From an uncultured Methanosarcinales archaeon (GTDB lineage Archaea > Nanobdellota > Nanobdellia > Woesearchaeales > SM23-78), in contig CAYGYA010000049.1 in assembly GCA_964354085.1 (NCBI GenBank), positions 3,887 to 67,886 of the forward strand: a DNA stretch of 64,000 nt, given 5' to 3'. The notes under the pieces were generated by a model, which had not been told where the DNA came from, ran no database searches, and saw only the letters and a program-made list of their open reading frames with translations. A program made the translations under genes and the position numbers. Shown here in pieces: positions 996 to 23,627 of this stretch (the first letter of the stretch is position 1; each line of letters starts with the position of its first letter).

Positions 996-1709
996 TTAAA
1001 GCTGAGGGCTGAACAAACCATAAATGCCTGTTACTTTCATCAGGTCAACAAACCATATCTTTACATAGCCAAGGAAAGGAGCTCTGAACACTGCCTTGCC
1101 TAGAACCTGCTTTTCAAGAACACGAGTCTCATCAAGCTCACTATCCCTTATCTGCATCTTATTATTATCTCCTTTGGTCTGGAACACCCACATACTCATA
1201 TCATCTTTCTTAATAACCCTGTGAATAATCGGATAAGGCTTGCCTGACTGGAAAACAATAACATCTCCAAGCTTTATGTCCCCTGGCTTCTTGCCAATAA
1301 GGAACATTATGTCTCCTCTGTTAAATCCATTCTTAAAAGGGTAAGTTTCAAAATCATCTTTAGTGAGATTCAAGGCAAGGTAATAGTCTTCATTAGTAGT
1401 CCACCACTGGTCAAATGACTGGTGATGTTCCATGCTATTACTCACAACAGCGACTATGGGGAAGTGCGTGCCGAAAATTAGGCCTAAGCCAGGATACACA
1501 ATGAACTTGATAATCACATACGCTAGAATAATATTAACAATCCAGCTGGCTACAGAATTATCATGCCAAATAAAATACCAGACCTTGCCATACCAGGTAG
1601 TAGGGTTCTTAGGCTCTTTCTTATATTCTTTTTTATCAGGAAAACTCTGTTTTCCTGGAACAGCAAGCTTTTGCTTGCTTGTCTCTTTCCTATCTTTTTT
1701 ATTAAACAT
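996..1709 (-). CDS. signal peptidase I, S26B/Sec11-like (archaeal type)
   Basis: N-terminal TM anchor. Catalytic-Ser region VVSNSMEH, GDIMF and GDVIVF boxes, then a C-terminal beta region. Fits S26 family topology. Confidence 0.7.
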   Translation of the reverse strand: MFNKKDRKETSKQKLAVPGKQSFPDKKEYKKEPKNPTTWYGKVWYFIWHDNSVASWIVNIILAYVIIKFIVYPGLGLIFGTHFPIVAVVSNSMEHHQSFDQWWTTNEDYYLALNLTKDDFETYPFKNGFNRGDIMFLIGKKPGDIKLGDVIVFQSGKPYPIIHRVIKKDDMSMWVFQTKGDNNKMQIRDSELDETRVLEKQVLGKAVFRAPFLGYVKIWFVDLMKVTGIYGLFSPQL

Positions 1710-1884
1710 TAAGCATCGTGAAAAGATGAGGGTTAAAAAAGCTTGCGGTTTTAAAACAGCTTAAGCTTATCCCAAACCTTTAAATACCATCTTATCTTCC
1801 CCTTTTTATTAAGGGAGAGGGTGTTAGTATATATGAAAGCTATCAAAACTAGCGTTTTGGAGCTTCATAAAATCCGGTGATTTT

Positions 1885-2757
1885 ATGAAAGCGATTAATC
1901 TCACTCTGTGCTCTTGCAACAAGTACGTAGAGAAAAACCAGTGGAAGCCTTATAAGGGCATTGAAAAGCTCATAACAGACTTGGTGAAAAAGCAAGTTCC
2001 GAATTCTAAGGTTATCTTTAAAAGCCTTGAGATTCCAATGGCAGTCAAGGAGAAGAAGCAGTTCGAGGTCATTGCCAAACTCAAAAAGCAAGAGCATGTT
2101 ATTGATGTTGTTCTCAAGCTTGCCAAGTGCAATCTTTGCGAAAAAGAAGGCACACAGTATTATGAAGCTGTTCTCCAGGTCAGGAGCAATAATTATGACA
2201 TTCTTGACAAAAGCATTGAGTATTTGCAGAAAAGAGTTGAGAATCTCAGGCACAGGGGAATGTTTATTAACCAGGTCGAGAGGCTTGATGATGGCTATGA
2301 CTTGTATGTCACTAACAAGAGCATCGCCCAGAACCTGGGGAGAGAGTTGCAGGATTTATTTGGCGGAGAATACAGGAGCAGTTCTCGCCTTTTCTCCAAG
2401 AGCAGGCAGACCAGCAAGAACATATACAGATTAGCATTATTTGTCAGGCTTCCAGGGTTTGAAAAAAGCGATATTATCCTGGTTGATGACAAGGTTTACA
2501 AGGTAGACAAGCTAGGCTCAAAAATAACATTATTAGACCTGTTAAAAAATAATCATCTCATTATTGACTTCTCAAAGCTAGATTATGCTGTTCTCAAGAA
2601 GCACGTCACCTATGTTGCAAGGACTCATCCCTATCTTGAAGTTATTAATCCTTATGATTTCCAGTCAAGCATGGTAAGAAACCATCCGACTAATAGCTTT
2701 GAGCTCGGACAGGAAGTAAAAGTGGTGGTTCACAAAGGGATATATGTTGTTGATTGA
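1885..2757 (+). CDS. NMD3-family protein (60S export adaptor homolog)
   Basis: N-terminal Cys clusters (CSCNKY, CNLCEKE) and the NMD3-typical LQVRS motif. 290 aa is typical of short archaeal NMD3 homologs. Confidence 0.5.
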   Translation: MKAINLTLCSCNKYVEKNQWKPYKGIEKLITDLVKKQVPNSKVIFKSLEIPMAVKEKKQFEVIAKLKKQEHVIDVVLKLAKCNLCEKEGTQYYEAVLQVRSNNYDILDKSIEYLQKRVENLRHRGMFINQVERLDDGYDLYVTNKSIAQNLGRELQDLFGGEYRSSSRLFSKSRQTSKNIYRLALFVRLPGFEKSDIILVDDKVYKVDKLGSKITLLDLLKNNHLIIDFSKLDYAVLKKHVTYVARTHPYLEVINPYDFQSSMVRNHPTNSFELGQEVKVVVHKGIYVVD

Positions 2758-2785
2758 GAATTTTTTATTTCTATTTTATTTTTTC

Positions 2786-3940
2786 TCATTCTTCCTTCTT
2801 CCTCTCTTTTTTGTACTCATCAACAATGTTCTTTAGAAGGTCGCGTTTTTTCAAAGCTTCTTCAATCGCATTTTTTTCAGCAATTGCAAAATTAGCATTT
2901 TCTTTTGTTATGATACCTTCAGGTTTTAGGAATACAAAAGTGTCGTCGCCGCGCTTGGGAACATTATCAGTTATTATCAATTTAACCTTGCCTTTTAATT
3001 CATCAACCACTTTCTGGCTGATGCTTCCAGGGTTATTAACAAAAATAATATCGCCTTGCTGTATGTCCAAAAATTTTTTTGCGCTGAACTCATCCCAGCT
3101 AAGGTCATCCAGCTTCTTGACCAATACCTTGTTTTTCAAGGCAATCAAGAACTCGTCTTTTCTCCTAAGCTCTTTTTCATAGTGCTGGATAAGCCGCGTA
3201 TTGTCTTTTAGCTGTTTTGTGTAGTGCTTAATACGCTTCTCTTTGAAATCAACAAGCTCTTCCTTGGGAGCGCCCAATACTTTTTTACCTAATCTTTTTA
3301 TCAGGTTATCTTTCTCCCTAATCAGAAAGCTCAGATTCCTATTCTGCTCTTCAAGAAGAATAATCTTTTCCTGCATCTCTCTCAGCATCTTCTCGCTAAA
3401 AGCACTCTTCTCAGTCTCCTTGACAATTTGCCTTGGAGTCTCAATAATCTTTTCCTTGTCTTTCTGCTCTGCCATCGCAAGGCTAGCTTCAAGAGGAAGG
3501 TCTTCATTACGCACCATGATTAGCTTGACAGCTTCTTCAAGCTCTTTCTTATCTTTCTCTTCGAGAAATCTTTCTATCTTGCCAAAAAAATTTTTGTGCT
3601 TATCAAATGCAAGAATAGCAGATGCCAGTGCATCAACTTCATGGGCATTAAGCTTGACATCATAATCCTTTGCAAGCATTCTTTTTTCAGCAACAAGCAG
3701 GTCTTGCCTTGGAAAGAAAAGCTTAGCACCCAGCTTTACTGCAAGGCTTTCTGCAAACCATGGCGGAGGATTCTTGTCACATCCAACAATCAAAGGCCTG
3801 CCAAAGCTGATGATGTTGTTGATGAGCTCGCTCATGGTGAATTCTTTGCCAGAGCCGCTAGTGATGAAATCTCCCTTGTCATTGATTATAGCATAGCCTA
3901 AAGTAGTGCCTGGGTCTACGCCGATGATTAATAATGCCAT
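2786..3940 (-). CDS. DUF460-type archaeal protein with N-terminal RNase-H-like fold and C-terminal coiled coil
   Basis: Begins MALLIIGVDPGTTLGYAIIN, a RuvC/YqgF-like first beta strand with an acidic residue. Long lysine/glutamate-rich coiled-coil middle. Start set at the internal Met. Confidence 0.45.
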   Translation of the reverse strand: MALLIIGVDPGTTLGYAIINDKGDFITSGSGKEFTMSELINNIISFGRPLIVGCDKNPPPWFAESLAVKLGAKLFFPRQDLLVAEKRMLAKDYDVKLNAHEVDALASAILAFDKHKNFFGKIERFLEEKDKKELEEAVKLIMVRNEDLPLEASLAMAEQKDKEKIIETPRQIVKETEKSAFSEKMLREMQEKIILLEEQNRNLSFLIREKDNLIKRLGKKVLGAPKEELVDFKEKRIKHYTKQLKDNTRLIQHYEKELRRKDEFLIALKNKVLVKKLDDLSWDEFSAKKFLDIQQGDIIFVNNPGSISQKVVDELKGKVKLIITDNVPKRGDDTFVFLKPEGIITKENANFAIAEKNAIEEALKKRDLLKNIVDEYKKERKKEE

Positions 3941-8267: not shown

Positions 8268-8382
8268 CGCCTCCAGCCGGATTTGAACCGACGACCGCGC
8301 GGTTACTTTCCTTCTCTTACCCAGATATTTCTGAGCAAGGCGAAGCTAACAGCCGCGAGCTCCACCGCTAAGCTATGGAGGC
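8268..8382 (-). tRNA. tRNA-Asn (anticodon GUU) with a ~43-nt intron after position 37
   Basis: Hand fold. Acceptor GCCUCCA/UGGAGGC, D-stem GCUU/GAGC, anticodon stem CGCGG/CCGCG with loop CU-GUU-A, T-arm GUCGG-UUCAAAU-CCGGC, discriminator G. Confidence 0.5.
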
Positions 8383-11409: not shown

Positions 11410-12600
11410 ATGCTCTTCAAAAAGGATGAACTGAGATTGCTGTGGCCTTTTTATCTTTATTACCTGGTTTTTGGCTTGTCAATCATGATTATGCCTTTCT
11501 TGATTATATATTTCAGGGATTTGGGCTTTTCTTTTTTTCAGATTGCATTAATCACTTCTGCCTTTGGAATTGCCATGTTCTTGTTTGAGACTCCTACAGG
11601 AGCTTTTGCCGACAGCATCAGCAGGAAATACTCAGTTATCCTTGGTTTTGTACTAACAGGCATAGCTGTTTCCTTAATGCCCTTATTCACAAGTTTCTAT
11701 ACGCTGCTTATTCTCTGGGCAGTAGCTGGCATTGGCATGACTTTTGTAAGCGGAGCAGAAGAAGCATGGGTCATTGACAACCTTAACCATTATGAAAGAA
11801 AAGATTTGCACCACGAGTATTTCATTAAAAGCTCAAGTTTAACGGCTTTTGGCGCAGTATTTGCTCCGATTCTAGGAGCTATTATTGTTAAGAGCCACCC
11901 GATTAGTACCTTATGGTATGTTTTCGGATTTGGCTTCTTAGTGAATGCAATCGTCCTTTCTATCTTTGCAAAAGAATTGTACAGGCCGGAAAAAACTGGC
12001 TTTATCAAAACAATGAAGCAGACCTTTGACAACAGCAAGCAAGGTTTAAAATTCACTTTTACTCATAAGATTGTTTTTCTCCTCACTCTCGGAAGTATTT
12101 TTTCATTCCTGATGATTATAGGAGACACCGGGTGGCAACCTTTCCTTGTCAGCCTCTCAATGCCAAGATACGCTTTAGGAATTATGTGGTCTATTGGAGC
12201 AGCTATTATGATGATTACTCCTTTCCTATCAAAGCTATTTGTAAAGATGAAAGTCAAGAATGTTGTTGCTGTTACAACCTTAATCAGGATGCTGCTTCTC
12301 TTATCAGTATTATTCATTTACCCGCCTTTTTATTTAATCGCGGCAATCGTCTATGTTTTTGACGATGGACTAAGAGGTTTAAAGGATCCTTTGCTCCAAA
12401 CCTATTTTCATAAGTTTGTTCCTGAGAATATCAGGGCAACAGTTGTTTCTGTCGGCAGCATGCTAACAAGAATCACCATTGCTTTGGCAAGCTTGGCTGC
12501 TGGGGCTCTAATGGATGTTCTAGGACCACAAAAAATTATCGGGATAGGAAGCTTGTTTGGGATATTCGCCATCGCAACATACCTGAAAATAAAAGATTAG
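11410..12600 (+). CDS. MFS-type transporter
   Basis: About 12 predicted hydrophobic segments in 6+6 layout. An MFS-like loop (GAFADSISRKYSV) follows TM2. Confidence 0.65.
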   Translation: MLFKKDELRLLWPFYLYYLVFGLSIMIMPFLIIYFRDLGFSFFQIALITSAFGIAMFLFETPTGAFADSISRKYSVILGFVLTGIAVSLMPLFTSFYTLLILWAVAGIGMTFVSGAEEAWVIDNLNHYERKDLHHEYFIKSSSLTAFGAVFAPILGAIIVKSHPISTLWYVFGFGFLVNAIVLSIFAKELYRPEKTGFIKTMKQTFDNSKQGLKFTFTHKIVFLLTLGSIFSFLMIIGDTGWQPFLVSLSMPRYALGIMWSIGAAIMMITPFLSKLFVKMKVKNVVAVTTLIRMLLLLSVLFIYPPFYLIAAIVYVFDDGLRGLKDPLLQTYFHKFVPENIRATVVSVGSMLTRITIALASLAAGALMDVLGPQKIIGIGSLFGIFAIATYLKIKD

Positions 12601-13009
12601 CAAAAAAATTTCTGACAAGAAAATGCAAAACTTTTCTAACAACAACTAAAACCTTTAATCAGTTTTGCAAGAAAAATTTTCAATAATGATTTCTCGTATA
12701 TCTTTTCAATAGTGCAAATAACTTTTCAGAAAAGTTTTATAAAAAAAATATTTTTTCGAAAAATTTCAAAATGAAAATATTTAAATATAGGGCTTCACAT
12801 AATAATTATATAAAAAATATAATAGTCGAGAAAAAAAAAATCAAAAAAACTGCTGGAAATCTGGGTGATCGTGTAGACAACTACTACAACGGCAAACATG
12901 AACAATACTTCTAATATTTCTGATGAAAATGATGAAGAGCCTGGCGGCAAACTAGGAGCTTTTACGAGATTTTTCTATTCACAAGCACGAAGGAGGTTTG
13001 ATTTGTAAA

Positions 13010-15106
13010 ATGAACTTAAAAGAATTCTCTGAGAAATTCCCTGATGTCATAGATGAAGTAAAAAAAGTTAGGAAAACTTATCCTATGAAAATTTCTGAAT
13101 ACTATTTAGGGCTTATGAAGGAGAAGAATGACCCTATCTGGAAGCAGTGCATTCCTGACTTGAAAGAGCTTGAAGATAATGTTAATGAGGAAGACCCGTT
13201 ATTAGAGGAAGAGTACAGTCCTGTTCCTTGCCTTGTTCACAGGTATCCTGACAGAGTCCTATTATTGGCTAGCAACAAGTGCGCCATGTACTGCAGGTTC
13301 TGCACAAGAAAGAGAAAGGTTGGCAAGGAAGTAGTGATAAGCAAGGACATGATTGCTAATGCTATTGATTACATTTCAAAGCACAATGAAGTCAGGGATG
13401 TAATAATCTCAGGGGGAGACCCTTTAATGCTTGATGATGATTTCCTGGAATGGATTGTCAAGAGCATCAGGGAGATTCCTCATGTTGAGATTATCAGGAT
13501 TGGAACCAGGGTTCCCTGCACCATGCCAGCAAGGATTACTCCAGAGCTGGTTGATATGCTCAAGAAGTATCATCCTGTTTTTGTTAATGTTCATTTCGAG
13601 CACCCGATGGAGATTACTCCTGAAAGCAAGAAGGCTTGTGAGTTGTTGGTAGATGCAGGCATTCCAGTGGCAAACCAGGCAGTAATGCTCAAAGGAATTA
13701 ATGATGACCCAAAAGTTTTGAGGGAATTATTCCACAAACTCATAGCAATGAGAGTTAAGCCTTATTACTTGTACCAGGCAGACTGCGTCAAGGGAACAGA
13801 GCACTTCAGGACCAGCATTGAACAGGGGCTTGAAGTCATGAAGAGCCTTTATGGTTTTACTTCTGGCATGTGCGTTCCGCAGTTCATGGTTGATGTTCCT
13901 GGAGGAGGAAAGATTCCTCTGCTGCCAGAATACCTGAAGTACAGGAATGATGAAAGCATTGTGCTTGAGAATTTTGAAGGAAAGATTGTTGAGTACAAGA
14001 ACCCATTGACTGTTGAGGAAAAAAAGAAAGCAGCCAATGGAAAGATGAGGATTGCAGTTGCTTTCAACCTCAAGAAAGAAGCTCCTAATGATCAGCCGGT
14101 TGATGCTTTTGCAGATTTCGACGAGATAGATGTGCCATTAGCCATCAAGAAAGCCCTGGAAAAGAAAGGGCATATTGCAGAAATAGTTGAGGCTAATGAG
14201 GAGTTCTTTGAAAAGATAAAGAATGGCAATTATGATTTTGTGTTTAACATGGCAGAAGGATTGAACACAGGAGCAAGAGAGAGCCAGATACCAGCTATTC
14301 TTGACATGCTAGGAATTCCTTACACAGGCTCTGGAATCCTGACCCAGGCAATCACTCTTGACAAGACCAAAACCAAAGAAATATTGACCTATCACGGAGT
14401 TCCTACTCCAAGATACCAGCTTTTCAATCACTGGGATGAGAAGATAAGTTCTGACCTGGTGTTCCCATTGTTTGTCAAGCCAAATGCAGAAGGCTCTTCA
14501 AAGGGAATAAGGAATAATTCTCTTGTTAATAATGAGAAAGAGCTTAAGAAGATGGTGAAGTATGTCATCTCAACCTACAAGCAGCCCGCACTGGCTGAAG
14601 AATACCTTGATGGAAGAGAATTCACAGTTGGAGTGATTGGAAACAGCCCTCCAAGAGTGCTTCCTATTGTTGAGATAACTTTCGACTACCTGCCTGCTGG
14701 GATTAACAAATTTGATTCTTATGAGGTCAAGTGGTATTGGGACAACCCAAACAACCCTGTTGACCCTATTGTGTGCCCTGCAAAAGTTGATGATGAACTC
14801 AAGCAAAGGATTGAGGAAGTAGCCTTGAGAACTTACAAGGTGCTCGGCATTCTTGACTTGTGTAGGATGGACATGAGGCTGGACAAGGAAGGGATACCGC
14901 ACGTCATTGATGTTAATGCCTTGCCAGGCATGATGCCTAACCCAATTGATAACTCAAGATTCCCAAAAGCCTGCTATGCTGCAGGCATGAACTATGACAA
15001 GATAGTCAATACTGTGCTAAACGAGGCTATGAAGAGGTATGGCTTGCTGACAGAGACTAAGAGAGTGAAAAATGAGAGTAGGAATTCTGTACAACTTAGT
15101 CGATAA
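13010..15106 (+). CDS. fusion protein: KamA-family radical-SAM 2,3-aminomutase (N-terminal ~340 aa) + D-Ala-D-Ala-ligase-like ATP-grasp ligase (C-terminal ~350 aa)
   Basis: N-terminal half carries the KamA signature CAMYCRFCTRKR (CxxxCxxC) and the PLP-region IISGGDPL. The C-terminal half restarts with a Ddl-like N-domain (MRIAVAFNLKKE...) and an ATP-grasp core (FPLFVKPNAEGSSKGI, EEYLDGREFTVGVIGN, LCRMDMRLDKEGIPHVIDVNALPG). AGGAGG lies 14 nt upstream of the ATG. Confidence 0.8.
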   Translation: MNLKEFSEKFPDVIDEVKKVRKTYPMKISEYYLGLMKEKNDPIWKQCIPDLKELEDNVNEEDPLLEEEYSPVPCLVHRYPDRVLLLASNKCAMYCRFCTRKRKVGKEVVISKDMIANAIDYISKHNEVRDVIISGGDPLMLDDDFLEWIVKSIREIPHVEIIRIGTRVPCTMPARITPELVDMLKKYHPVFVNVHFEHPMEITPESKKACELLVDAGIPVANQAVMLKGINDDPKVLRELFHKLIAMRVKPYYLYQADCVKGTEHFRTSIEQGLEVMKSLYGFTSGMCVPQFMVDVPGGGKIPLLPEYLKYRNDESIVLENFEGKIVEYKNPLTVEEKKKAANGKMRIAVAFNLKKEAPNDQPVDAFADFDEIDVPLAIKKALEKKGHIAEIVEANEEFFEKIKNGNYDFVFNMAEGLNTGARESQIPAILDMLGIPYTGSGILTQAITLDKTKTKEILTYHGVPTPRYQLFNHWDEKISSDLVFPLFVKPNAEGSSKGIRNNSLVNNEKELKKMVKYVISTYKQPALAEEYLDGREFTVGVIGNSPPRVLPIVEITFDYLPAGINKFDSYEVKWYWDNPNNPVDPIVCPAKVDDELKQRIEEVALRTYKVLGILDLCRMDMRLDKEGIPHVIDVNALPGMMPNPIDNSRFPKACYAAGMNYDKIVNTVLNEAMKRYGLLTETKRVKNESRNSVQLSR

Positions 15107-16067
15107 AGTTGATCACGGCAAGGACCTTGACAAACTGGCAGACAACGAAGTTCTAGAAACATCTAAAGCTGTCAAAGCTGCTCTTGAAAAGAGAAGTCAT
15201 GCTGCTGTCCTTGAAAAGATTAACCCTGATGAATTGGAAAAATTAAAGCAAAAGTATGACCTGATTTTTAATCTTGCAGAAGGGATTGGAGGCGACCCAT
15301 TAAAGGAGCCTGAGATTGCTGCTGTTTTTGAAAAAGCAGGCTTGCCTTTCACAGGAGCAGGCTCAAAAGCACTTGCACTATGCCTTAACAAGGAAAAAGC
15401 CAAGGAAGTACTGATAAAAAATAATATACCAACGCCAAAATACCAGCTTATCAAGAAGCTGCCTGCAAAAAAAAATAAGGATTTGAAATACCCCTTGATT
15501 ATAAAGCCAGTGCATGAAGACGGAAGTATTGGCATAAACTCTGATTCTGTTGTTAATGATGATCCAAGCTTTGAAAAGAAAGTCAATGAGATACTTGAGG
15601 TTTACAAGCAGCCAGCCCTGGTTGAAGAATATATTGATGGGCGAGAAATTAACGTGGGGATTCTTGGCAATGGTAAGGGCATAGAAGCTCTTCCTCTCTC
15701 AGAGATAATATTTGATTTTCCAGAAGGAGTTCCTAAAATTGTTTCTTTTGAAGCCAAATGGATTGAAGAGTCAGCTCTGTGCAAGAAAAGCATAGGAAAA
15801 TGCCCTACAAATGTTCCAGAGCAAATAAGGAATAATATAGTTGAGCTTGCAAAAAAAGCATTCCTGGCAATGGGATGTGCAGACTATGGGCGAGTTGATT
15901 TCAGGCTCAGGGGAGAAGAATTGTTTGTCCTCGAAGTCAATCCAAATCCTTGCATCAACCCCGACGGAGCAGGGTTTATACGCTCTGCAAATGCAGCAGG
16001 CTACACCTATGATGACATCATCAACAAGATTGTTGAGCTTGCACTGAAGCGTTATTCTAATTCTTAG
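15072..16067 (+). CDS. D-Ala-D-Ala-ligase-like ATP-grasp ligase, paralog 2
   Basis: MRVGILYNL start, YPLIIKPVHEDGSIGI, EEYIDGREINVGILGN, GRVDFRLRGEELFVLEVNPNPC. Overlaps the upstream fusion gene by 35 nt. Confidence 0.75.
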   Translation: MRVGILYNLVDKVDHGKDLDKLADNEVLETSKAVKAALEKRSHAAVLEKINPDELEKLKQKYDLIFNLAEGIGGDPLKEPEIAAVFEKAGLPFTGAGSKALALCLNKEKAKEVLIKNNIPTPKYQLIKKLPAKKNKDLKYPLIIKPVHEDGSIGINSDSVVNDDPSFEKKVNEILEVYKQPALVEEYIDGREINVGILGNGKGIEALPLSEIIFDFPEGVPKIVSFEAKWIEESALCKKSIGKCPTNVPEQIRNNIVELAKKAFLAMGCADYGRVDFRLRGEELFVLEVNPNPCINPDGAGFIRSANAAGYTYDDIINKIVELALKRYSNS

Positions 16068-16229
16068 AAAAAATTTAGAATAAAATTCTGAATAATAAAA
16101 ATAATTTGAAAACATTTTTAAAGCTCTAAAATAAATTATTATATGTAAAAAAATATTACGACGAGAAAAATATTTGATAAAAAAATTATAAAAAACAAAA
16201 AACGGATAATTTTTTGGGGAAAATTCATT

Positions 16230-17255
16230 ATGAAAGTAGTTATTGTTTATTCAGACGGGGAAGTTGCATCGCATACATCTGCTGATTACAAGGGAAGAAC
16301 TGATGACGCTAACATACAGAACGTGAACGACGCTCTGATTAGCCTAGGCCACGAAGTAATCAGGGTGGTTGCTGACGAGACAATATTCCAGAAATTACTT
16401 GAGCTAAAGGACAGCACAGACATAGTCTTTAACCTTGCAGAGGAAGGATATAAGCAGGACATCCACACAGAGCCTCACATGGCTGCGCTGCTGGAGATGC
16501 TGGGCTTCAAGTTCACAGGCTCAAATTATTTATGCCTTGCAAACTGCCTTGACAAGGCAAGGGCAAAACAATTGTTTGTGGTGAATGGATTATCAACACC
16601 CAAGTTCATTATCTTCAACAAGGAAATAAATGCGGATGTAAAAATAAATGGATTAACCTTCCCGTTGATAGTCAAGCCTGGAAAGAGCGACGGCAGCGTA
16701 GGCATAAGGCGTAATTCTGTTGTTGAAGATGTAGAAAGCCTGGTATTAAGAGTGAATGAGGTTATCCAGACCTATGAACAACCAGCACTTGTGGAAGAAT
16801 TCATTGACGGCAGGGAGATAAATGTGGGAATATTCGGAAACAAAAGGCTCACAGTGCTTCCGATGTCTGAAATAATATTCAATCTTAAACCTGAAGAAAG
16901 AAATTTCCTGCCTTACGAGGCTAAATGGCTTACCAGGACCAAGTATTACAAAGGCACAACTCCGCAATGCCCAGCAGAAATAGAGCCTGGCCTGAAAGCA
17001 GAGATTGAAGAGCTTGCAAGAAAAGCTTACACTCTCATGGGAGTGAGAGGCTATGGAAGAGTTGATTTCAGGATTGACGCTAACAATAAGCCTTACATCC
17101 TAGAAGTAAATCCTAATCCTGATATATCTAGTGACGCAGGGCTTTCAAGGATGATAGCTGCCCACGGGATTACATATAAAGAACTAATAGAGAAGATTGT
17201 CAGGATGGGCATCAACAAGGACGAGCAGGAGTTCAGGATAATTATCTATGAATAA
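16230..17255 (+). CDS. D-Ala-D-Ala-ligase-like ATP-grasp ligase, paralog 3
   Basis: FPLIVKPGKSDGSVGI, EEFIDGREINVGIFGN, GRVDFRIDANNKPYILEVNPNPD. Clearly paralogous to the two upstream ATP-grasp units. Confidence 0.75.
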   Translation: MKVVIVYSDGEVASHTSADYKGRTDDANIQNVNDALISLGHEVIRVVADETIFQKLLELKDSTDIVFNLAEEGYKQDIHTEPHMAALLEMLGFKFTGSNYLCLANCLDKARAKQLFVVNGLSTPKFIIFNKEINADVKINGLTFPLIVKPGKSDGSVGIRRNSVVEDVESLVLRVNEVIQTYEQPALVEEFIDGREINVGIFGNKRLTVLPMSEIIFNLKPEERNFLPYEAKWLTRTKYYKGTTPQCPAEIEPGLKAEIEELARKAYTLMGVRGYGRVDFRIDANNKPYILEVNPNPDISSDAGLSRMIAAHGITYKELIEKIVRMGINKDEQEFRIIIYE

Positions 17256-17305
17256 AATGCTTATTTTCTAATTCACAAATCTTTATATATTACTTGTTGC
17301 TCTAA

Positions 17306-18937
17306 TTGGTAATGCCTGTTAGAAAGAATCATTCCAACAAAAAATTTATTGTTGTCACAGGCGGTGTTCTCTCTGGCTTGGGAAAAGGAGTTGCTGCAGC
17401 TACAATTGGAAACCTGATAACAAAGGCAGGATTAAGAGTTATTCCTATTAAGTGCGACGGCTATCTTAATGTTGACCCCGGCACTATGAATCCTATTGAG
17501 CATGGCGAAGTATTTGTTCTTGATGATGGCGGAGAAGTTGACATGGACTTTGGCCATTATGAAAGATTTCTTGGCGTTACCTGCAAATTCAACTGGAATC
17601 TTACCATGGGCAAGGTTTATGAAGCAATAAGAACTAAGGAGAGGCGCGGTGATTATCTTGGAAAAACAGTCCAGCTCATACCCCATGTTACTGATTTGAT
17701 TAAGGATTGGTTCTACAAGGTTGCTGAGGATGAAAAAGCAGATGTTGTGATGATAGAAGTAGGAGGAACTGTCGGCGATATTGAGAATGAATTATATATT
17801 GAGGCTTGCAGAGAATTAAAAAGAGAAGTTGGCCATGAGAATATTCTTTATGTTCACCTGACTTATGTTCCTATTCCTACTAATGTGCATGAGCAAAAGA
17901 GCAAGCCAACTCAGCAATCAGTAATCCTGCTAAGAGAAAGAGGGATTGAGCCTGACATAATAATAGGCAGGTGCGCAGAATACCTTGATGAGAAGATAAA
18001 GAACAAGATAAGTGTTTTCTGCGATATAGAGCAAAAAGCAGTAATCACAGGCCTGGATGTTGACTGCGTCTACAAGATACCAGTTGTTTTCTCAGATGAA
18101 GGGATTAATTACATAATAAAGGAAAGATTGGGAATTGATTCTGGAGTCAAGCCCGAATGGAAGAAATTAGTTGATAACTTGTCAAAGCTTGACAAAGAAT
18201 TGAATATTGCAATATGTGGCAAGTATACTAAGCTCGAGGACTCATATGCTAGCATTCTCGAAGCCTTGAAGCACTGCAGCGCAAATCTGAAAGCAAAGAT
18301 TAATGTGAAAATGATAGAGACAACTGACGTGAACAATCAGGAAGATGCAAAAAAATTACTCAAGGGTATTGACGGAGTAATTGTTCCTGGAGGCTTTGGA
18401 AGCAGAGGAGTAGAAGGCAAGATAGAAGTGATACGTTATTGCAGAGAGAAAAACATTCCATTCCTAGGGCTTTGCTATGGACTCCAGCTTGCAACAGTTG
18501 AGTTTGCTCGTAATGTTTGCGGATTAAAAGATGCAAACACAACTGAAGTTGATGAGAAAACCAAATATCCTGTGATTGACATAATGCCTGAGCAGAAGAA
18601 CATAGAGAACAAGGGCGGGACAATGAGACTTGGAGCTTATCCTGCTGTCATGAAAGAAAAAACAATTATCTGGGAGCTCTATGGCAAGCAAAAAGAAGTT
18701 AGTGAAAGGCACAGGCACAGGTATGAAGTAAATCCTGAATACCACGAGATACTGCAAAAGCATGGATTAATATTCTCAGGCATGAGCCCTGACAAAAGAT
18801 TAGTTGAATTCATTGAATTGCCAAAGGAAAAGCACAAATACTTTGTAGGAACACAAGCACATCCAGAGCTAAAGAGCAAATTAGAAAAGCCAGGGCCACT
18901 ATTCTATGGACTGGTTAAGGCTTGCTTGGAGAAATAG
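17306..18937 (+). CDS. pyrG: CTP synthase
   Basis: FIVVTGGVLSGLGKG P-loop, synthetase-domain motifs, and a C-terminal glutamine amidotransferase with LGLCYGLQL (catalytic Cys) and HRHRYEVN. Confidence 0.9.
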   Translation: MVMPVRKNHSNKKFIVVTGGVLSGLGKGVAAATIGNLITKAGLRVIPIKCDGYLNVDPGTMNPIEHGEVFVLDDGGEVDMDFGHYERFLGVTCKFNWNLTMGKVYEAIRTKERRGDYLGKTVQLIPHVTDLIKDWFYKVAEDEKADVVMIEVGGTVGDIENELYIEACRELKREVGHENILYVHLTYVPIPTNVHEQKSKPTQQSVILLRERGIEPDIIIGRCAEYLDEKIKNKISVFCDIEQKAVITGLDVDCVYKIPVVFSDEGINYIIKERLGIDSGVKPEWKKLVDNLSKLDKELNIAICGKYTKLEDSYASILEALKHCSANLKAKINVKMIETTDVNNQEDAKKLLKGIDGVIVPGGFGSRGVEGKIEVIRYCREKNIPFLGLCYGLQLATVEFARNVCGLKDANTTEVDEKTKYPVIDIMPEQKNIENKGGTMRLGAYPAVMKEKTIIWELYGKQKEVSERHRHRYEVNPEYHEILQKHGLIFSGMSPDKRLVEFIELPKEKHKYFVGTQAHPELKSKLEKPGPLFYGLVKACLEK

Positions 18938-19084
18938 AGTTTTCTTGAAATTACATCCTTCTAGTCCAATTGTTCTTATTTGCTAATCAAAAACCCACTC
19001 GTAATTAAACATAACCGGTAAAGCATTTAAATATGATAAAGTATTTAAATTTTGCTTTAAAGGATAGTCTTGAGGAGGGTGTGA

Positions 19085-19738
19085 TTGAAAAACATAAATA
19101 TTGAAAATCAAAGGAGTGGAGAATCTCGAGCATATGCTTCTCTAGAAGGGGATGTTAGGAACCTTATTAAAGCATTCATGAAGTCAGATGACAAAAGTTT
19201 AGTAATCCCTTACACTGGAAAAAGGCTTTCTGCAATAAATGAGTGGAAGAGAATGAGGTTCAACCCAAAGCTTTTTTTTAACTGTATTGTTACCGAGATG
19301 CTTAAAAAATTGCCTCCTTCTAACTTCAAGAATTCATGTTACAGGCTGCTAGGGTTTAAGATAGGTCGTGACGTAGCAATATGCAATGACGTTCATATTG
19401 ATCCTTTTTTCCCGGAACTGACAATTATCGGCGATGGTGTCCTTTTGGGATACAAATCCACAATTAATGTTCATGACTATGTTATGAGAGATCTGAAAGT
19501 CGGGAGGGTTGTAATCAATAGCGGCTCTCTAATAGGAGGCAGGTCGCTGGTGAACTGCGGGGTGACTATAGGCAAGAACTGCGTTGTGGCAATCAACAGC
19601 GTTGTTGATCATGACATACCTGATAATACTGTAGTGGGAGGAAATCCCTTGAAAAAGCTTATAACTCTTCAGGAAGGAGAGATTTTCCGTTTCAAAAAGG
19701 CATACATCGGTAAAGATGGGCTTGAGCACGAGTATTGA
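19085..19738 (+). CDS. hexapeptide-repeat (left-handed beta-helix) acyl/acetyltransferase
   Basis: Repeated [LIV]G..... hexads: IGDGVLLGYKSTINVHD, VINSGSLIGGRSLVNCGVTIGKNCVVAINSVV, VVGGNPLKKL. The listed ORF starts at TTG; an ATG 31 codons in is an alternative start. Confidence 0.6.
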   Translation: MKNINIENQRSGESRAYASLEGDVRNLIKAFMKSDDKSLVIPYTGKRLSAINEWKRMRFNPKLFFNCIVTEMLKKLPPSNFKNSCYRLLGFKIGRDVAICNDVHIDPFFPELTIIGDGVLLGYKSTINVHDYVMRDLKVGRVVINSGSLIGGRSLVNCGVTIGKNCVVAINSVVDHDIPDNTVVGGNPLKKLITLQEGEIFRFKKAYIGKDGLEHEY

Positions 19739-19766
19739 AACGAAAATTTGGCTGTTTAAGGAAAAT

Positions 19767-20126
19767 ATGTATATCGGGACTGATTGTGAGGATATTGAAA
19801 GGTTTGAAAACCTTGAAAAGCAGTTTATTTCTAAAGTGTTTTCAAGGAAAGAAACTGATTATTGCCTGTCCACACAAAAGCCTGCTGAGCATTTTGCTGT
19901 AAGGTTTGCTGCAAAAGAAGCAGTAATAAAAGCATTTATGCAGGCAGGCTGTAGCATAGGATTGGATTTGTGTGACATAGAAATCCTTAAAGACCGTGCG
20001 GGAGTTCCTTTTGCCAAGCTGCATGCTGATAAGCAAGATAAATTAAACAGCTACACCATAAGGGTTAGCATGTCGCATTCAAAAAATATGGCTTTGGCTT
20101 TTGCAATAGTTTTTCAGAAAAATTAA
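19767..20126 (+). CDS. acpS: holo-ACP synthase-type 4'-phosphopantetheinyl transferase
   Basis: YIGTDCEDIERFE is the AcpS GxDxxE Mg site. FSRKETDYC, FAAKEAVIKA, LDLCDIEILKD...GVPF and the C-terminal VSMSHSKNMALAFAIV match the AcpS fold signature. ~119 aa from the internal Met. Confidence 0.65.
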   Translation: MYIGTDCEDIERFENLEKQFISKVFSRKETDYCLSTQKPAEHFAVRFAAKEAVIKAFMQAGCSIGLDLCDIEILKDRAGVPFAKLHADKQDKLNSYTIRVSMSHSKNMALAFAIVFQKN

Positions 20127-20153
20127 TAAACCGCAACGCCAGTTAAGGTTTTC

Positions 20154-21977
20154 ATGAGTGATTTTTTTGAAGAAAAGTCCTTGCTTGACAAGCTTACCTT
20201 TGAGTCTCCCATCTATGATTATATTTCTGCTTATTCAAAATTGCATTCCCTGGACCTATCGCCGCTCAAGCTGAAAAAGCTAAGAATCGCTTTTGTCTGC
20301 AGTTTCACTATTTCAAACATTGAAAAAGTTTTTTTCACTCTCTGCATAAAAAACAACATCATGCCTGAGTTTTACTTCTCGGATTATAACCAGTATACCC
20401 AGGACATCTTAGACGAAAAGAGCAAGCTATACTCTTTTCACCCCGATATTACTTTTCTGTTTATTGATTCAAGAGCCCTGCTTGCGGAATCATATTTTGT
20501 TCCTTATCCTTCCTCTGAAGAAAGCATGAAAAAAAATGCTGAGGAAATTACCAATTATCTTATTAATTTGGTTGACAAGCTTCAAAAATTTTGCCCCAAA
20601 ACAGTTGTTCATAACCTGGAAATACCTTTCTATTCACCCCTGGGAATTGCGGAAAACAAGGAGGCTTTCGGGTTTTTGGATATTTTTTCATCAGTAAACA
20701 ATGCTTTAAGAAAAAAGTATGAGGAAAACAGCTCTGTTTTTGTTTTTGATTTTGACCAGTTCCTGTCTAAAATAGGCAAAGAAAATGCATTTGATTACAA
20801 GATGTATTATTTAGGTGACATGAAGATTGCCATGCAAATCTTTCCAAAACTGGTAAACGAATACCTGGCATATCTTATTCCTACAGCCTCCTTTACAAGA
20901 AGGTGCATTGTCCTTGACCTGGATAACACTCTTTGGGGAGGAAATGTGGGAGATGATGGGTTTAATGGAATTCAGCTTGGCCCAAAGCCTCCTGGGAACC
21001 AGTTCATGGATTTCCAAAAACATCTCCTGGCCCTGCACAATAGGGGCATTCTCCTGGCTATCAACAGCAGCAACAACTATGAGGAAGCAATGAATGTGAT
21101 TGAGAAACACCAGTTCATGGTATTAAAGAAAAAAAATTTCTCATCGATTAAGATAAACTGGGAGCCAAAAGATGAGAATATGAAGAATATCGCTAAGGAG
21201 ATTAACATAGGACTTGATTCCTTTGTTTTCATAGATGACCTAGCAGAGAACAGGGAAAGAATCAAGGAGCTGCTTCCTGAAGTTGAGACGATAGATATGC
21301 CTGAAGATCCTGCCCTTTATACAAAAACGCTTCTTGACCTAAAATTGTTTTCATCATTTGCAATTACTGAGGAAGACTTCTGCAGGGGCGAACTGTATGC
21401 CCAGCGAAGCCAGCGTGACAGTTTAAGACTATCATCTAACAGTATGGAGAAATTCTTAGAGAATCTGGGATTGTCAGTCAATATTGCACAGGCAGACTTG
21501 CCTTCAATTCCAAGGATTTCCCAGCTATGCATGAAAACCAACCAATTCAACGTCACCACAAGAAGATATTCTGAATCAGACATCAAAGCATTTTATGAAA
21601 ACAATAATTGCGTAGTATACCAATTGGATGCAACTGACCGCTTTGGCGACCATGGGCTGGTAGGAGTTTGTATCATAAAAAAAGAGGGTGACAAGGCGTT
21701 CATTGACAGCTTTTTGCTGAGTTGCAGAGTTATGGGATTTCATATAGAAAATGCTTTTTATAATTATGTTGCAGATGACCTAAAGAAGCAGGGTATTACA
21801 AGCATATCTTCTCTCTACATCCCTACTACAAAAAATTCTCCTGTAAAGGATTTGTACGCCTCGTTTGGTTTTAGCAAGGCAAAGGAAAATGATGATGGTT
21901 CAGTTCAATGGGATAAAAGCCTACAGGATTTCACACCTGAGTATCCCAAATGGATTTTAATGGAGATAAAAAAATGA
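20154..21977 (+). CDS. FkbH-like protein (HAD-IIIC phosphatase domain + C-terminal acyl/GNAT-like domain); predicted glyceryl-S-carrier-protein loading enzyme
   Basis: The FkbH/HAD-IIIC signature CIVLDLDNTLWGGNVGDDGFNGIQLG is an exact match to the family core. LAINSSNN and FIDDLAENRE complete the HAD motifs. 607 aa is typical of FkbH proteins. Confidence 0.7.
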   Translation: MSDFFEEKSLLDKLTFESPIYDYISAYSKLHSLDLSPLKLKKLRIAFVCSFTISNIEKVFFTLCIKNNIMPEFYFSDYNQYTQDILDEKSKLYSFHPDITFLFIDSRALLAESYFVPYPSSEESMKKNAEEITNYLINLVDKLQKFCPKTVVHNLEIPFYSPLGIAENKEAFGFLDIFSSVNNALRKKYEENSSVFVFDFDQFLSKIGKENAFDYKMYYLGDMKIAMQIFPKLVNEYLAYLIPTASFTRRCIVLDLDNTLWGGNVGDDGFNGIQLGPKPPGNQFMDFQKHLLALHNRGILLAINSSNNYEEAMNVIEKHQFMVLKKKNFSSIKINWEPKDENMKNIAKEINIGLDSFVFIDDLAENRERIKELLPEVETIDMPEDPALYTKTLLDLKLFSSFAITEEDFCRGELYAQRSQRDSLRLSSNSMEKFLENLGLSVNIAQADLPSIPRISQLCMKTNQFNVTTRRYSESDIKAFYENNNCVVYQLDATDRFGDHGLVGVCIIKKEGDKAFIDSFLLSCRVMGFHIENAFYNYVADDLKKQGITSISSLYIPTTKNSPVKDLYASFGFSKAKENDDGSVQWDKSLQDFTPEYPKWILMEIKK

Positions 21978-22210
21978 GCAAGCTATTCGAGATTGTCGGG
22001 AAAATACTTGGCGCAAATCCTTTAAAAATAAATGATGAAAGTTCAGCAGCAACTTTAAGCGAATGGGACTCGATGAATAATCTCGTCATTTTCTCTGCCA
22101 TAGAAAAGGAATTCAATGTGAAATTCACCATGAAAGAGATTAATTCTGTAAAGAATCTTGGCGCTGTGAAACAACTATTAATGGCAAAGACAGGAAGATC
22201 TGATTTTTAA
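21974..22210 (+). CDS. acyl/peptidyl carrier protein (PP-binding)
   Basis: 78-aa 4-helix-sized ORF with LSEWDSMNNLVIFSAIEKEF. The Ser in DSM sits at the start of helix 2, as in ACP/DltC. Start overlaps the FkbH stop (ATGA), indicating translational coupling. Confidence 0.6.
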   Translation: MSKLFEIVGKILGANPLKINDESSAATLSEWDSMNNLVIFSAIEKEFNVKFTMKEINSVKNLGAVKQLLMAKTGRSDF

Positions 22211-22255
22211 ACTTATTTTATACGAGATTAATCAAGGCTTGCCTGGAGAAATAGT

Positions 22256-23041
22256 TTATTTCTTTCTGCACACATAAATAGAGAAGATGGGTATTCTTGT
22301 GAATATATTGTATTCTTCAGGATTGTATTTCTTGAAAGACTGTACTGGCTTACAATCAATAATGTCAATCAGTTCAAAACCTGCCTGCCTTATTGCTTTC
22401 AAAATGATCCTAAAACTTCTTTGGTGCTCCTTGGTTATCATTCCAGGAACCATTTCATAGTTGGTTATGGCTTCAGAAAAAGCATTTCCCAAGTCAATTC
22501 TCTTATTAGTTCTCTTATCAACAACGTATCCTAATCCACGGATTCTCAGGTTCTCATCTTCATAATACTCCCTTGCTGAAGCTATTGGGCTAAGGCAAGA
22601 AAAAAACAATTCACCTGCTTTTTTAAGCACCCTGCCAGCTTCTCTAAAGGCTTTATCAAGGTTATCAACATGGTCAATGCAAAGGCTCGATGTGACTATA
22701 TCAAAGAATTTATTTTCATACGGAAGCTTCTCAGCAGAGCCAACTATAAACTCTGCTCCTTTGCATCGCACTTTTGCAAGCTCAATCATAGTCTTGCTAA
22801 CATCCATGCCCCACACTTTTGCTCCTCTTCGTAAGTATTCTTTTGCATGCACTCCTGCTCCGCAACCAACATCCAACAGTTTCTTGCCCCTTATATTGCC
22901 TATTGCTTTGAACATACAAGGCATTTCAAGAAATTCATTAAAAGCTCTCTCTGCCTTATGTTTTTCTCGGCTCTTCTGGTATTCTGCCCCAAATTCATCA
23001 TACATTCTTTTTGTGTATTTTTCAATAGATTTGCTTGACAT
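22256..23041 (-). CDS. class I SAM-dependent methyltransferase
   Basis: Motif I LLDVGCGAGVHA, an acidic motif II GMDVS, and motif post-I/IV FDIVTSSLCIDHV. Confidence 0.7.
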   Translation of the reverse strand: MSSKSIEKYTKRMYDEFGAEYQKSREKHKAERAFNEFLEMPCMFKAIGNIRGKKLLDVGCGAGVHAKEYLRRGAKVWGMDVSKTMIELAKVRCKGAEFIVGSAEKLPYENKFFDIVTSSLCIDHVDNLDKAFREAGRVLKKAGELFFSCLSPIASAREYYEDENLRIRGLGYVVDKRTNKRIDLGNAFSEAITNYEMVPGMITKEHQRSFRIILKAIRQAGFELIDIIDCKPVQSFKKYNPEEYNIFTRIPIFSIYVCRKK

Positions 23042-23627
23042 TTTTCACACTCTCCTCAACCAGTTCATCAATATCCAGTTTAGCTTCCTCATACTCAACC
23101 TTCTCAAGCCGTGAAGTTGTTGCTGGATGCGATGGCAGGAATGGGCAGCCAGGGCTTTTCTGGATTGACATTTCATAGGTTCCTAATTTCCTGGCTAATT
23201 TGATTGTATCGTTCTTGTCAAAGCCTAGCAAGGGTTGCAACACAGTCATCTTGACTGCTCCTTGTATTACTGCCATATTATCAAGAGTCTGGCTTGCTAC
23301 CTGGCCCATGTTCTCCCCTGTTATTATGAAATCGCACTTCTGCTTTTCAGCAAGCTTTTCTGCTATCCTTAGCATCATTCTCTTGCAATAGATGCAGGTG
23401 TAACGAGGATTGCACTTTTCTCTATAAGCATCATGTGCAAATCTTAGCTCTGCAAAAAATAAGTGCTGCACATTTACCTTTTTTGCCAAATCAATAACTT
23501 TCTGATTTTCTTTTTCATTATCCCAGAAATTCAGGTGGAGAGCAATTAACTCAACGCCTTTCTCTGCTGCCAATTTGCCAGCTACTGGGCTGTCAATTCC
23601 TGAGCTGAGCAATAACAAGCCTTTCAT
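23022..23627 (-). CDS. ThiI-like PP-loop ATP pyrophosphatase domain protein (tRNA sulfurtransferase catalytic domain without THUMP)
   Basis: PP-loop LLSSGIDSPVA, ITGENMGQVASQTLDNM and LQPLLGFDKNDTIKLARKLGT match the ThiI C-terminal domain. Start at internal Met MKGLL. Confidence 0.6.
   Translation of the reverse strand: MKGLLLLSSGIDSPVAGKLAAEKGVELIALHLNFWDNEKENQKVIDLAKKVNVQHLFFAELRFAHDAYREKCNPRYTCIYCKRMMLRIAEKLAEKQKCDFIITGENMGQVASQTLDNMAVIQGAVKMTVLQPLLGFDKNDTIKLARKLGTYEMSIQKSPGCPFLPSHPATTSRLEKVEYEEAKLDIDELVEESVKNVKQIY

Follow-up and report, generated by a model that had tools for sequence, protein, structure and literature searches.

Do the biosynthetic genes that lie within 9 kb of a 64,000-nucleotide (nt) stretch of archaeal DNA (contig CAYGYA010000049.1, positions 3,887 to 67,886; hereafter the window, to which all coordinates refer unless another locus is named) serve a single pathway, or are they separate units that happen to adjoin? 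The region encodes a KamA-type radical S-adenosylmethionine (SAM) aminomutase fused to an ATP-grasp ligase (KamA-F), two further ATP-grasp ligases resembling D-alanine-D-alanine ligase (Ddl2 and Ddl3), CTP synthase (PyrG), a hexapeptide (LbH) acyltransferase, an AcpS-type 4'-phosphopantetheinyl transferase (PPTase), an FkbH-like loading enzyme and a small carrier protein. A first-pass annotation had named these eight proteins from their translations, and profile searches recovered every one of the families, all on the plus strand. It had also read the genes as one island encoding one pathway, a reading that comparison with related loci did not support. We assign a probability of roughly 60% to the interpretation that the region consists of two independent units, neighbors only in this strain, where an insertion has entered the 3' end of pyrG: module A (12898-17255), which would direct the synthesis of a beta-lysine oligo-amide, and module B (18938-22254), a putative glyceryl-S-acyl carrier protein (glyceryl-S-ACP) cassette for glycan modification. 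Each of the two consists of enzymes from known families.

Synteny and module boundaries

Module A, which comprises a small upstream open reading frame (uORF), KamA-F, Ddl2 and Ddl3, was conserved in ~13 related DPANN genomes. When all window proteins were compared by tblastn with the related loci (numbered from L001), the order KamA-F, Ddl2, Ddl3, PyrG was found to be kept in L001, L002, L003, L015-17 and L018, with PyrG syntenic after Ddl3 in L001, L002, L015 and L018; the LbH acyltransferase, AcpS, FkbH and carrier protein of module B gave zero matches in any relative carrying module A. The L018 sequence was 93% identical to the window at the nucleotide level over 12620-18936, where the match ended at the pyrG stop codon, to resume at 23044. 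The separation was equally evident from the other side. In a survey of FkbH gene context (80 metagenome loci together with L024 and L025, 82 in all and 742 kb; counts from it are lower bounds, many of the contigs being short), no homologue of KamA, the Ddl-like ligases, PyrG or the transporter upstream of module A was present, and FkbH did not occur among 23 KamA loci. Standing between the modules, pyrG (17306..18937, +) is a housekeeping gene, an equivalog match to TIGR00337 at 753 bits; it belongs to neither pathway, and the insertion lies at its 3' end. Judged by this gene order, module A is vertically conserved backbone between cysS and pyrG and was not laterally acquired here. The earlier suggestion of lateral acquisition thus stands for the FkbH, carrier protein and PPTase set, which behaves as a unit, has a 21-nt repeat at its borders and occurs in none of the relatives, and falls for module A.

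The slot between pyrG and a ThiI-like gene was occupied differently depending on the relative, by a DUF1846 gene in L018, a gene for a Yip1-domain protein in L001, glnA and asnC in L002, and glnA, asnC and a GNAT-family acetyltransferase gene (GNAT) in L015. In the window the slot holds module B between two direct repeats of 21 nt. The left copy, AAGGCTTGCTTGGAGAAATAG (18917..18937, +), is formed by the last pyrG codons and the stop codon, and the right copy, AAGGCTTGCCTGGAGAAATAG (22234..22254, +), is identical to it at 20 of 21 positions; a blastn-short search against the whole window returned the repeat at E = 2e-4. A pseudo-copy of the pyrG end, 46-55 nt in length, brackets other cargo in L015 and L016 (in L015 the repeated ends lie at 18098-18143 and 20917-20971), and the downstream copy in L015 is closer to the pyrG end of the window than to the functional end of L015 itself. 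This repeat pattern seems to reflect att-like integration into a gene 3' end, with the pyrG 3' end serving as a recurrent insertion hot spot in the lineage. The L015-L017 loci, 92%-identical relatives of the window, also contain, between Ddl3 and pyrG, a gene of 590 amino acids (aa) on the minus strand (L015 14648-16420) that had no Pfam match and is not present in the window.

The host is an archaeon, in agreement with the first-pass annotation. Family scans of the flanks and of the rest of the window, the latter covering the 25 best of 67 families, returned archaeal housekeeping functions, including TFS, topoisomerase VI A and B, Nop5, fibrillarin, eRF1, RIO1, deoxyhypusine synthase and cysteinyl-tRNA synthetase, and the G+C content, earlier named as a check on chimeric assembly, was continuous at 0.38-0.42 across the whole window with no shift. 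The fusion protein had matches of 56-81% identity in 13 species-level genomes that bear the label Woesearchaeota, Nanoarchaeia or Nanoarchaeota and of up to 98% on metagenome contigs, and DNA synteny with related DPANN genomes extended through the greater part of the window's first 34 kb. On the strength of these relatives and this synteny, the contig is assigned to the genome of a DPANN archaeon (Woesearchaeota/Nanoarchaeia), and the stretch would not be a bacterial misassembly.

The aminomutase-ligase fusion

The region delimited by the first-pass annotation begins at 12898, which is not the start of KamA-F but the ATG of a separate 36-aa reading frame in a different frame. The KamA-F open reading frame opens at 12998 (702 aa) and its real start is probably the ATG at 13010, giving a protein of 698 aa (13010..15106, +) with Radical_SAM (1.7e-19), LAM_C (5e-16) and Dala_Dala_lig_C (2e-36) domains. 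The aminomutase portion, a radical SAM/pyridoxal phosphate (PLP) domain, occupies approximately residues 1-340 and an ATP-grasp domain of a clade here termed F approximately residues 350-698, an architecture that recurred in almost every one of the 120 best clusters. The protein scored 310 bits against the KamA family model TIGR00238 (cutoff 199) and matched lysine 2,3-aminomutase of Clostridium subterminale (PDB 2A5H) at 5e-111, with the window motifs YLYQAD and FMVDVPGG.GK aligning to that structure.

The CxxxCxxC motif, R134, D293, D330 and the PLP lysine K337 (2A5H numbering) were kept in the window protein and invariant in 114 of 114 fusion proteins. In 2A5H, D293 and D330 hold the epsilon-ammonium group of lysine and R134 its carboxylate, and both aspartates are replaced in glutamate 2,3-aminomutase. 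Because these active-site residues are invariant, we strongly infer that the KamA domain turns L-lysine into beta-lysine, and the earlier assignment to the beta-lysine type was borne out. The best NCBIfam match was the AblA equivalog TIGR03820, although its score of 458 bits lay under the cutoff of 525, and the Zn-site cysteines have been lost, C268 being replaced by D and the region of C375, C377 and C380 being deleted, with the ATP-grasp domain in its place.

The Ddl-like ligases

Ddl2 (15072..16067, +) and Ddl3 (16230..17255, +), each ~335 aa, matched PF07478 at 1.5e-30 and 5e-36, respectively. The first 35 nt of Ddl2 lie within the end of KamA-F, an arrangement suggestive of translational coupling. 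Relative to E. coli DdlB, residues K97, K144, E180, E187, K215, R255, D257, E270 and N272 were kept in all three ATP-grasps, with the single change of E270 to D in the fused domain; with the DdlB catalytic residues thus kept, all three look like active ligases. The Ddl/VanA family remains their closest structural and profile match and shares their fold and ATP/Mg catalytic residues, yet the likeness ends at the substrate site. Scores against Ddl models were 161-190 bits versus cutoffs of 243-246 (161 versus 243 for Ddl2), and NF053643 (Ddl_archaea, pseudomurein) was matched by Ddl2 only, at 58.5 bits versus a cutoff of 500. The D-Ala1 motif GGxSxEREVS, which contains E15, was absent, E stood in place of H63 and W in place of Y216, and the genomic context is a lysine aminomutase rather than mur genes. 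Since D-Ala site residues are missing and the scores fall under all Ddl cutoffs, the three proteins are by these measures not D-Ala-D-Ala ligases, in line with the first-pass view that they act outside murein chemistry.

A neighbor-joining tree resolved three old paralogue clades, F (the fused domain), type-2 (Ddl2) and type-3 (Ddl3). The type-2 clade takes in partner ligases of Thermoplasmatota and Methanocellaceae, Ddl-GNAT fusions among them, and the type-3 clade takes in those of the Methanocellales locus L020 and the DPANN locus L007. An exhaustive search of the Ddl2 family returned 1416 representative clusters at E<=1e-30, including many tandem double ATP-grasp proteins (~640-790 aa) and ATP-grasp-GNAT fusions (~500-545 aa), for example P0268, P0281, P0285, P0295 and P0305. 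In the manner of Rosetta-stone proteins, these tandem and GNAT fusions suggest that the ligation and acetylation steps belong to one pathway.

Module A outside DPANN archaea

KamA-ATP-grasp fusions were also present in Thermoplasmatota, Methanocellales, Omnitrophica and one spirochaete, where the loci usually add a GNAT and a second ligase, in many cases as a single fused protein. KamA-F was followed by a ligase and a GNAT in L020 (Methanocellales) and L023 (Omnitrophica) and by a ligase-GNAT fusion in L021 (Thermoplasmatota) and L106, and L010 (Methanocellaceae) encoded KamA, a ligase and a ligase-GNAT protein; the fusion stood alone in L022, from the spirochaete, and in L108. The operon GNATs of these other phyla were RimL/Acetyltransf_3-like and mutually homologous. 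Their identity with AblB was considered and rejected, as TIGR03827 was not matched. A fusion of reversed order, with the ATP-grasp N-terminal and KamA C-terminal, was encoded in L107 (2341-5196), followed by a peptidase S51, with which it may form a synthesis-plus-degradation pair. Peptidase S51 is the cyanophycinase/dipeptidase E family; an AMP-binding-like gene precedes the reversed fusion.

The upstream reading frame and promoter-like region of module A

The region of 400 nt 5' of KamA-F was conserved in an alignment of seven genomes. It contains a promoter-like segment (12780..12838, +) with columns invariant in the seven genomes, composed of a TATA box, TTTAAATA (12780-12787), and the motif GTCGAGAAAAAAA beginning at 12825. 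The element CGAGAAAAA, for which the window contained four matches versus 0.75 expected by chance, recurs 5' of Ddl3 at 16162, and a TATA-like box was present in 16120-16172. These coincidences of sequence suggest that CGAGAAAAA may be a promoter-proximal element shared by KamA-F and Ddl3 and that Ddl3 possibly has a TATA-like promoter of its own. Rfam at the gathering threshold reported nothing in the whole window other than one tRNA, and a permissive scan of 12550-13100 for a riboswitch 5' of KamA-F returned nothing credible. A scan for sigma-70 promoters and terminators found no enrichment, and the sigma-70 model is irrelevant for an archaeon.

Between promoter and fusion lies the uORF (12898..13008, +), which encodes the 36-aa peptide MNNTSNISDENDEEPGGKLGAFTRFFYSQARRRFDL in a frame different from that of KamA-F and stops 1 nt before the KamA-F ATG. 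It occurred once per locus and in constant position in the window, L018/19, L015-17 and L001-L004, with 1-28 nt separating its stop from the KamA-F ATG in the six loci measured (window, L018/19 and L001-L004). Its length was 36 aa here and 36-85 aa elsewhere, a common N-terminal part ending in (D/E)(D/E)EPG, and codons within this motif varied at the third position. The uORF was missing from the distant loci L005-L010, L020-23 and L106-108. The encoded peptide may be a leader with a regulatory role or may serve the ligases as substrate or carrier, and its confinement to close relatives favors the leader-peptide reading. In L018, the database start of the fusion (protein P0001, 725 aa; 1130-3307) is ~80 nt early and overruns the uORF region, the conserved start being the ATG at L018 1211.

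The module B cassette

The first gene of module B encodes the LbH acyltransferase (19085..19738, +; 217 aa), which matched Hexapep_2 (31.8 bits versus 27; 1e-7) and, among structures, most closely maltose O-acetyltransferases (3e-11); NF058585 reached 100 bits versus a cutoff of 300, and no equivalog model scored above its cutoff. By these matches it is of the maltose/galactoside O-acetyltransferase/WcaF type, and we propose that it acts as an acyl-ACP:acceptor transferase. The two small proteins that the first-pass annotation had assigned to the ACPS and PP-binding families do belong there. AcpS, 119 aa from the ATG at 19767 (19767..20126, +; 136 aa from the opening of the frame at 19716), scored 64 bits versus 25 against PF01648 and 70.9 versus 59.8 against TIGR00516. 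The carrier protein (21974..22210, +; 78 aa, or 86 aa from 21950) passed the PF00550 gathering cutoff marginally (21.9 bits versus 20.8), and its WDSM serine motif aligned with the WDSL of the putative ACP 2LML, the best PDB match (5.7e-6). NCBIfam acyl_carrier models gave it 16-18 bits versus ~70, so it is not the AcpP of fatty acid synthesis.

FkbH (20154..21977, +; 607 aa) scored 311.5 bits against TIGR01686 (cutoff 146.65) and matched PDB 3SLR at 3.6e-44. It is composed of an FkbH_N domain, a HAD-IIIC phosphatase domain with the motif DLDNT and a C-terminal acyl-transfer domain with the cysteine motif LLSCR, and residues D255, D257, T259 and S523-C524-R525 were invariant in 16 homologues. 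Its stop codon overlaps the ATG of the carrier protein gene (ATGA). Across the 82 FkbH loci, a carrier protein directly followed FkbH in at least 57, and FkbH was adjoined by AcpS in at least 35, by an LbH acyltransferase in at least 25, usually divergent and just upstream, and by a MaoC dehydratase in at least 23. The codon overlap and this recurrent place after FkbH lend further support to the marginal carrier-protein assignment.

FkbH, carrier protein and AcpS had been regarded as exotic for archaea, a view that the distribution of FkbH contradicts for this lineage. Apart from a 100% self-match on a 69.7-kb NCBI contig the next best relative was 48% identical, and hundreds of FkbH clusters at 44-48% identity were found, several of them labeled Woesearchaeota or Nanoarchaeota. 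The LbH protein has an 89%-identical relative (P0241) on a 21.5-kb JGI contig; set against the gap between 100% and 48% for FkbH, this suggests that the cassette may be a mosaic. In loci with long flanks, the homologous cassettes were set within clusters for glycan biosynthesis. A woesearchaeote FkbH cassette sits among glycosyltransferases, epimerases, a DegT aminotransferase, UDP-glucose dehydrogenases and a formyltransferase, one on a marine contig among glycosyltransferases of families GT4 and GT2, FkbM and TylF methyltransferases, an epimerase and a polysaccharide deacetylase, and a bacterial homologue of 47% identity adjoins fliD, fliS and an MptE-like gene in a flagellar locus. Neither in the cassette and its flanks nor among the best 25 of 67 window families were FkbG/I/J/K-type tailoring enzymes, a FabH-like ketosynthase or a polyketide synthase encountered, so that the polyketide or tetronate connection drawn earlier was not upheld.

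Another version of the FkbH cassette was observed in L024 (9634-13360) and L025 (10001-14415), with a MaoC dehydratase, an Antibiotic_NAT-type N-acyltransferase, these two being fused in the bacterium, and a methyltransferase. This version suggests that the ACP-bound unit is dehydrated there before N-acylation of an amino sugar.

Proposed products and known systems compared

In module A, the radical SAM/PLP domain would convert L-lysine to beta-lysine, after which the fused ATP-grasp and then the two paralogous ligases would form amide bonds through acyl-phosphate intermediates, yielding a small beta-lysine-containing oligo-amide of perhaps 2-4 residues. In other phyla, where one partner ligase is accompanied by a RimL-type GNAT, the product would probably be N-acetylated. 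The module A product would most likely serve as a solute of the cytoplasm, be it an osmolyte or an organic polycation, by analogy with N-epsilon-acetyl-beta-lysine and N-acetylglutaminylglutamine amide (NAGGN) and in keeping with the core synteny of the operon in a reduced genome.

The first of these analogies is with AblA/AblB, the system for the methanogen compatible solute N-epsilon-acetyl-beta-lysine, and with the clostridial KamA of 2A5H. The CxxxCxxC motif, PLP lysine and both aspartates for the epsilon-amine are common to all, and the operons of other phyla also share the GNAT, which the window operon does not have; KamA-F differs in scoring under the AblA cutoff, in carrying an ATP-grasp in place of the Zn-cysteine region, in being joined by one to two further ligases, and in that the associated GNATs are not AblB. 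The second analogy concerns the osmolyte NAGGN, which is made by Ngg, a bifunctional protein with GNAT and ATP-grasp domains. The likeness would lie in a small N-acetylated peptide solute that an ATP-grasp joined to a GNAT assembles non-ribosomally, but the domain order differs, the substrate of module A would be beta-lysine, the module A ligases are Ddl-like where Ngg is cyanophycin-synthetase/RimK-like, and module A has no AsnO-type amidotransferase.

For module B, family membership and the glycan-cluster context of the homologues suggest three steps. AcpS would turn the apo-carrier into its holo form, FkbH would dephosphorylate a 1,3-bisphosphoglycerate unit and load the glyceryl group onto the carrier by way of its conserved cysteine, and the LbH enzyme would shift the acyl group to an acceptor hydroxyl (or amine), most likely on a surface-glycan sugar. 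FkbH and OzmB form glyceryl-S-ACP in methoxymalonyl-ACP and tetronate polyketide pathways. Module B resembles these pathways in its TIGR01686 score, the HAD DxDxT motif, the conserved cysteine and the dedicated small carrier after FkbH, but differs from them in having no FkbG/I/J/K, ketosynthase or polyketide synthase, in possessing an LbH O-acyltransferase and AcpS, and in having homologues within glycan clusters. A second point of comparison is bacterial glycan decoration, the flagellin glycosylation locus of Campylobacter jejuni carrying the FkbH-domain gene cj1302 (PMC7099621). Such loci pair an FkbH-domain gene with a carrier, as module B does, in a surface-glycan context, whereas module B is found in a DPANN host away from a glycan cluster, carries its own PPTase, and has the LbH enzyme rather than the MaoC/Antibiotic_NAT pair of L024 and L025.

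Weighing the alternatives

Several observations weigh against the interpretation of two independent units with these products. Tblastn with four operon GNAT queries found no GNAT in the window or the DPANN loci, so that the product of the woesearchaeal operon may differ from that of other phyla. No glycosyltransferase or sugar-nucleotide gene was among the best 25 of the 67 window families, and no integrase was found in either cargo (window or L015) to account for the repeat-flanked insertion. To our knowledge, none of the FkbH-type enzymes of glycan clusters has been characterized biochemically, so the acyl group could be other than glyceryl. The adjacent modules could also engage in cross-talk in this one strain.

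The alternative that survives best, while still unlikely, is that the product of module A is a bioactive beta-lysine peptide for export, an antibiotic or host-manipulating polycation, with the GNAT conferring self-immunity and a major facilitator superfamily (MFS) transporter acting as exporter. An MFS gene (11410..12600, +; PF07690 MFS_1, 9e-29) does lie directly 5' of module A in the window and upstream in L003, GNATs accompany the operon in other phyla, and streptothricin resistance GNATs acetylate the beta-lysine amine. However, the link to the transporter held in only 2-3 of ~13 DPANN loci, a neighboring homologue (54% identity) occurring otherwise in L003 only and L018 containing a short match to its 3' end; the operon lies within the conserved core synteny of a reduced genome; the fusion of GNAT to ligase suggests a biosynthetic step over immunity; and no defense or toxin family was matched, PADLOC giving generic radical-SAM and methyltransferase similarity only. 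The transporter is a possible exporter or importer whose association with module A is weak.

We regard as improbable the proposal that module A acts on a ribosomally made peptide or protein, its ligases placing beta-lysine or a beta-lysyl chain on the EEPG peptide of the uORF in the manner of PGM1 in pheganomycin or of LysW/LysX. It would explain why the uORF is conserved directly 5' of KamA-F, to which it appears translationally coupled, and why the acidic (D/E)(D/E)EPG motif is invariant with synonymous third-position changes. Yet the uORF was confined to a close clade (fusion identity >=71%), and the core system therefore functions in its absence; the tail of the peptide differs among loci in both length and sequence, as is more in keeping with a regulatory leader; and the ligases are of the small-molecule Ddl type rather than of the RimK/LysX or MdnB/C types. 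We would likewise give little credence to the more far-reaching notion of a new ribosomal/ATP-grasp hybrid in which the uORF peptide is beta-lysylated or acts as a LysW-like carrier in DPANN archaea. A related reading would have the ligases build a new class of beta-lysine oligo-amides widespread in uncultivated anaerobic archaea.

The one-pathway proposal, that all genes cooperate to produce a peptide or amide of a beta-amino acid, joined to or assembled on a glycerate unit borne by the carrier protein, is now highly improbable. The genes are adjacent, on one strand and within 9 kb, and ACP loading by an ATP-grasp enzyme has a precedent in BtrJ of butirosin biosynthesis, but the cassette was missing from every module A relative, including the genome of 93% nucleotide identity, KamA or Ddl occurred in 0 of 82 FkbH loci, and a housekeeping gene stands between two modules of which one is bounded by its own direct repeats. 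There is only a slim chance that module A makes a murein- or pseudomurein-type cell-wall peptide with the Ddl-like proteins as D-Ala-D-Ala-type ligases: their best family and PDB matches are indeed such ligases, but the scores under the Ddl and Ddl_archaea cutoffs and the altered D-Ala site speak against it, no Mur-type ligase was found in the operon or the loci examined, and the lysine aminomutase fusion points to beta-lysine as the substrate. That 13-22 kb is a chimeric or misassembled bacterial fragment is scarcely credible, for although FkbH, ACP and AcpS are typically bacterial families, the G+C content is flat, synteny with several independent DPANN assemblies is continuous to either side of the cassette, whose borders carry a duplicate of the host's own pyrG end, the identical FkbH protein occurs on the 69.7-kb NCBI contig, and FkbH cassettes are common in Woesearchaeota.

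Neighboring genes

The ThiI-like gene and fibrillarin flank the region. A class I SAM methyltransferase of 261 aa (22256..23041, -; Methyltransf_11, 7e-26) overlaps the end of the ThiI-like gene; it had no homologue in L001-L014 and was also missing from L018. It may O-methylate the product of module B, a weak link, and since the gene sits outside the repeat-bounded segment its connection with the cassette is uncertain. The tRNA detected by Rfam (8268-8382, -; 49 bits) is full length at 115 nt and is probably an intron-containing archaeal tRNA; ARAGORN reported none.

Significance

The literature searched yielded no paper on the KamA-ATP-grasp operon and none on archaeal FkbH cassettes. The fusion and its partner ligases are abundant across Woesearchaeota, Thermoplasmatota, Methanocellales and some bacteria, and they carry no annotation beyond "KamA family radical SAM protein" or "D-alanine-D-alanine ligase". 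"Ddl" matches in DPANN genomes are easily mistaken for peptidoglycan genes, and the context of module A suggests beta-lysine chemistry. Module B indicates that carrier-protein chemistry reaches archaea that are otherwise without ACP in the form of a self-contained cassette that brings a PPTase along. The interest of the locus now lies in a widespread beta-lysine ligase system, a conserved upstream peptide and a mobile carrier-protein cassette. Knowing what module A produces would bring a further class of metabolite, solute or polycation, to organisms in which hardly any biosynthesis is known, and would provide a tractable target in vitro.

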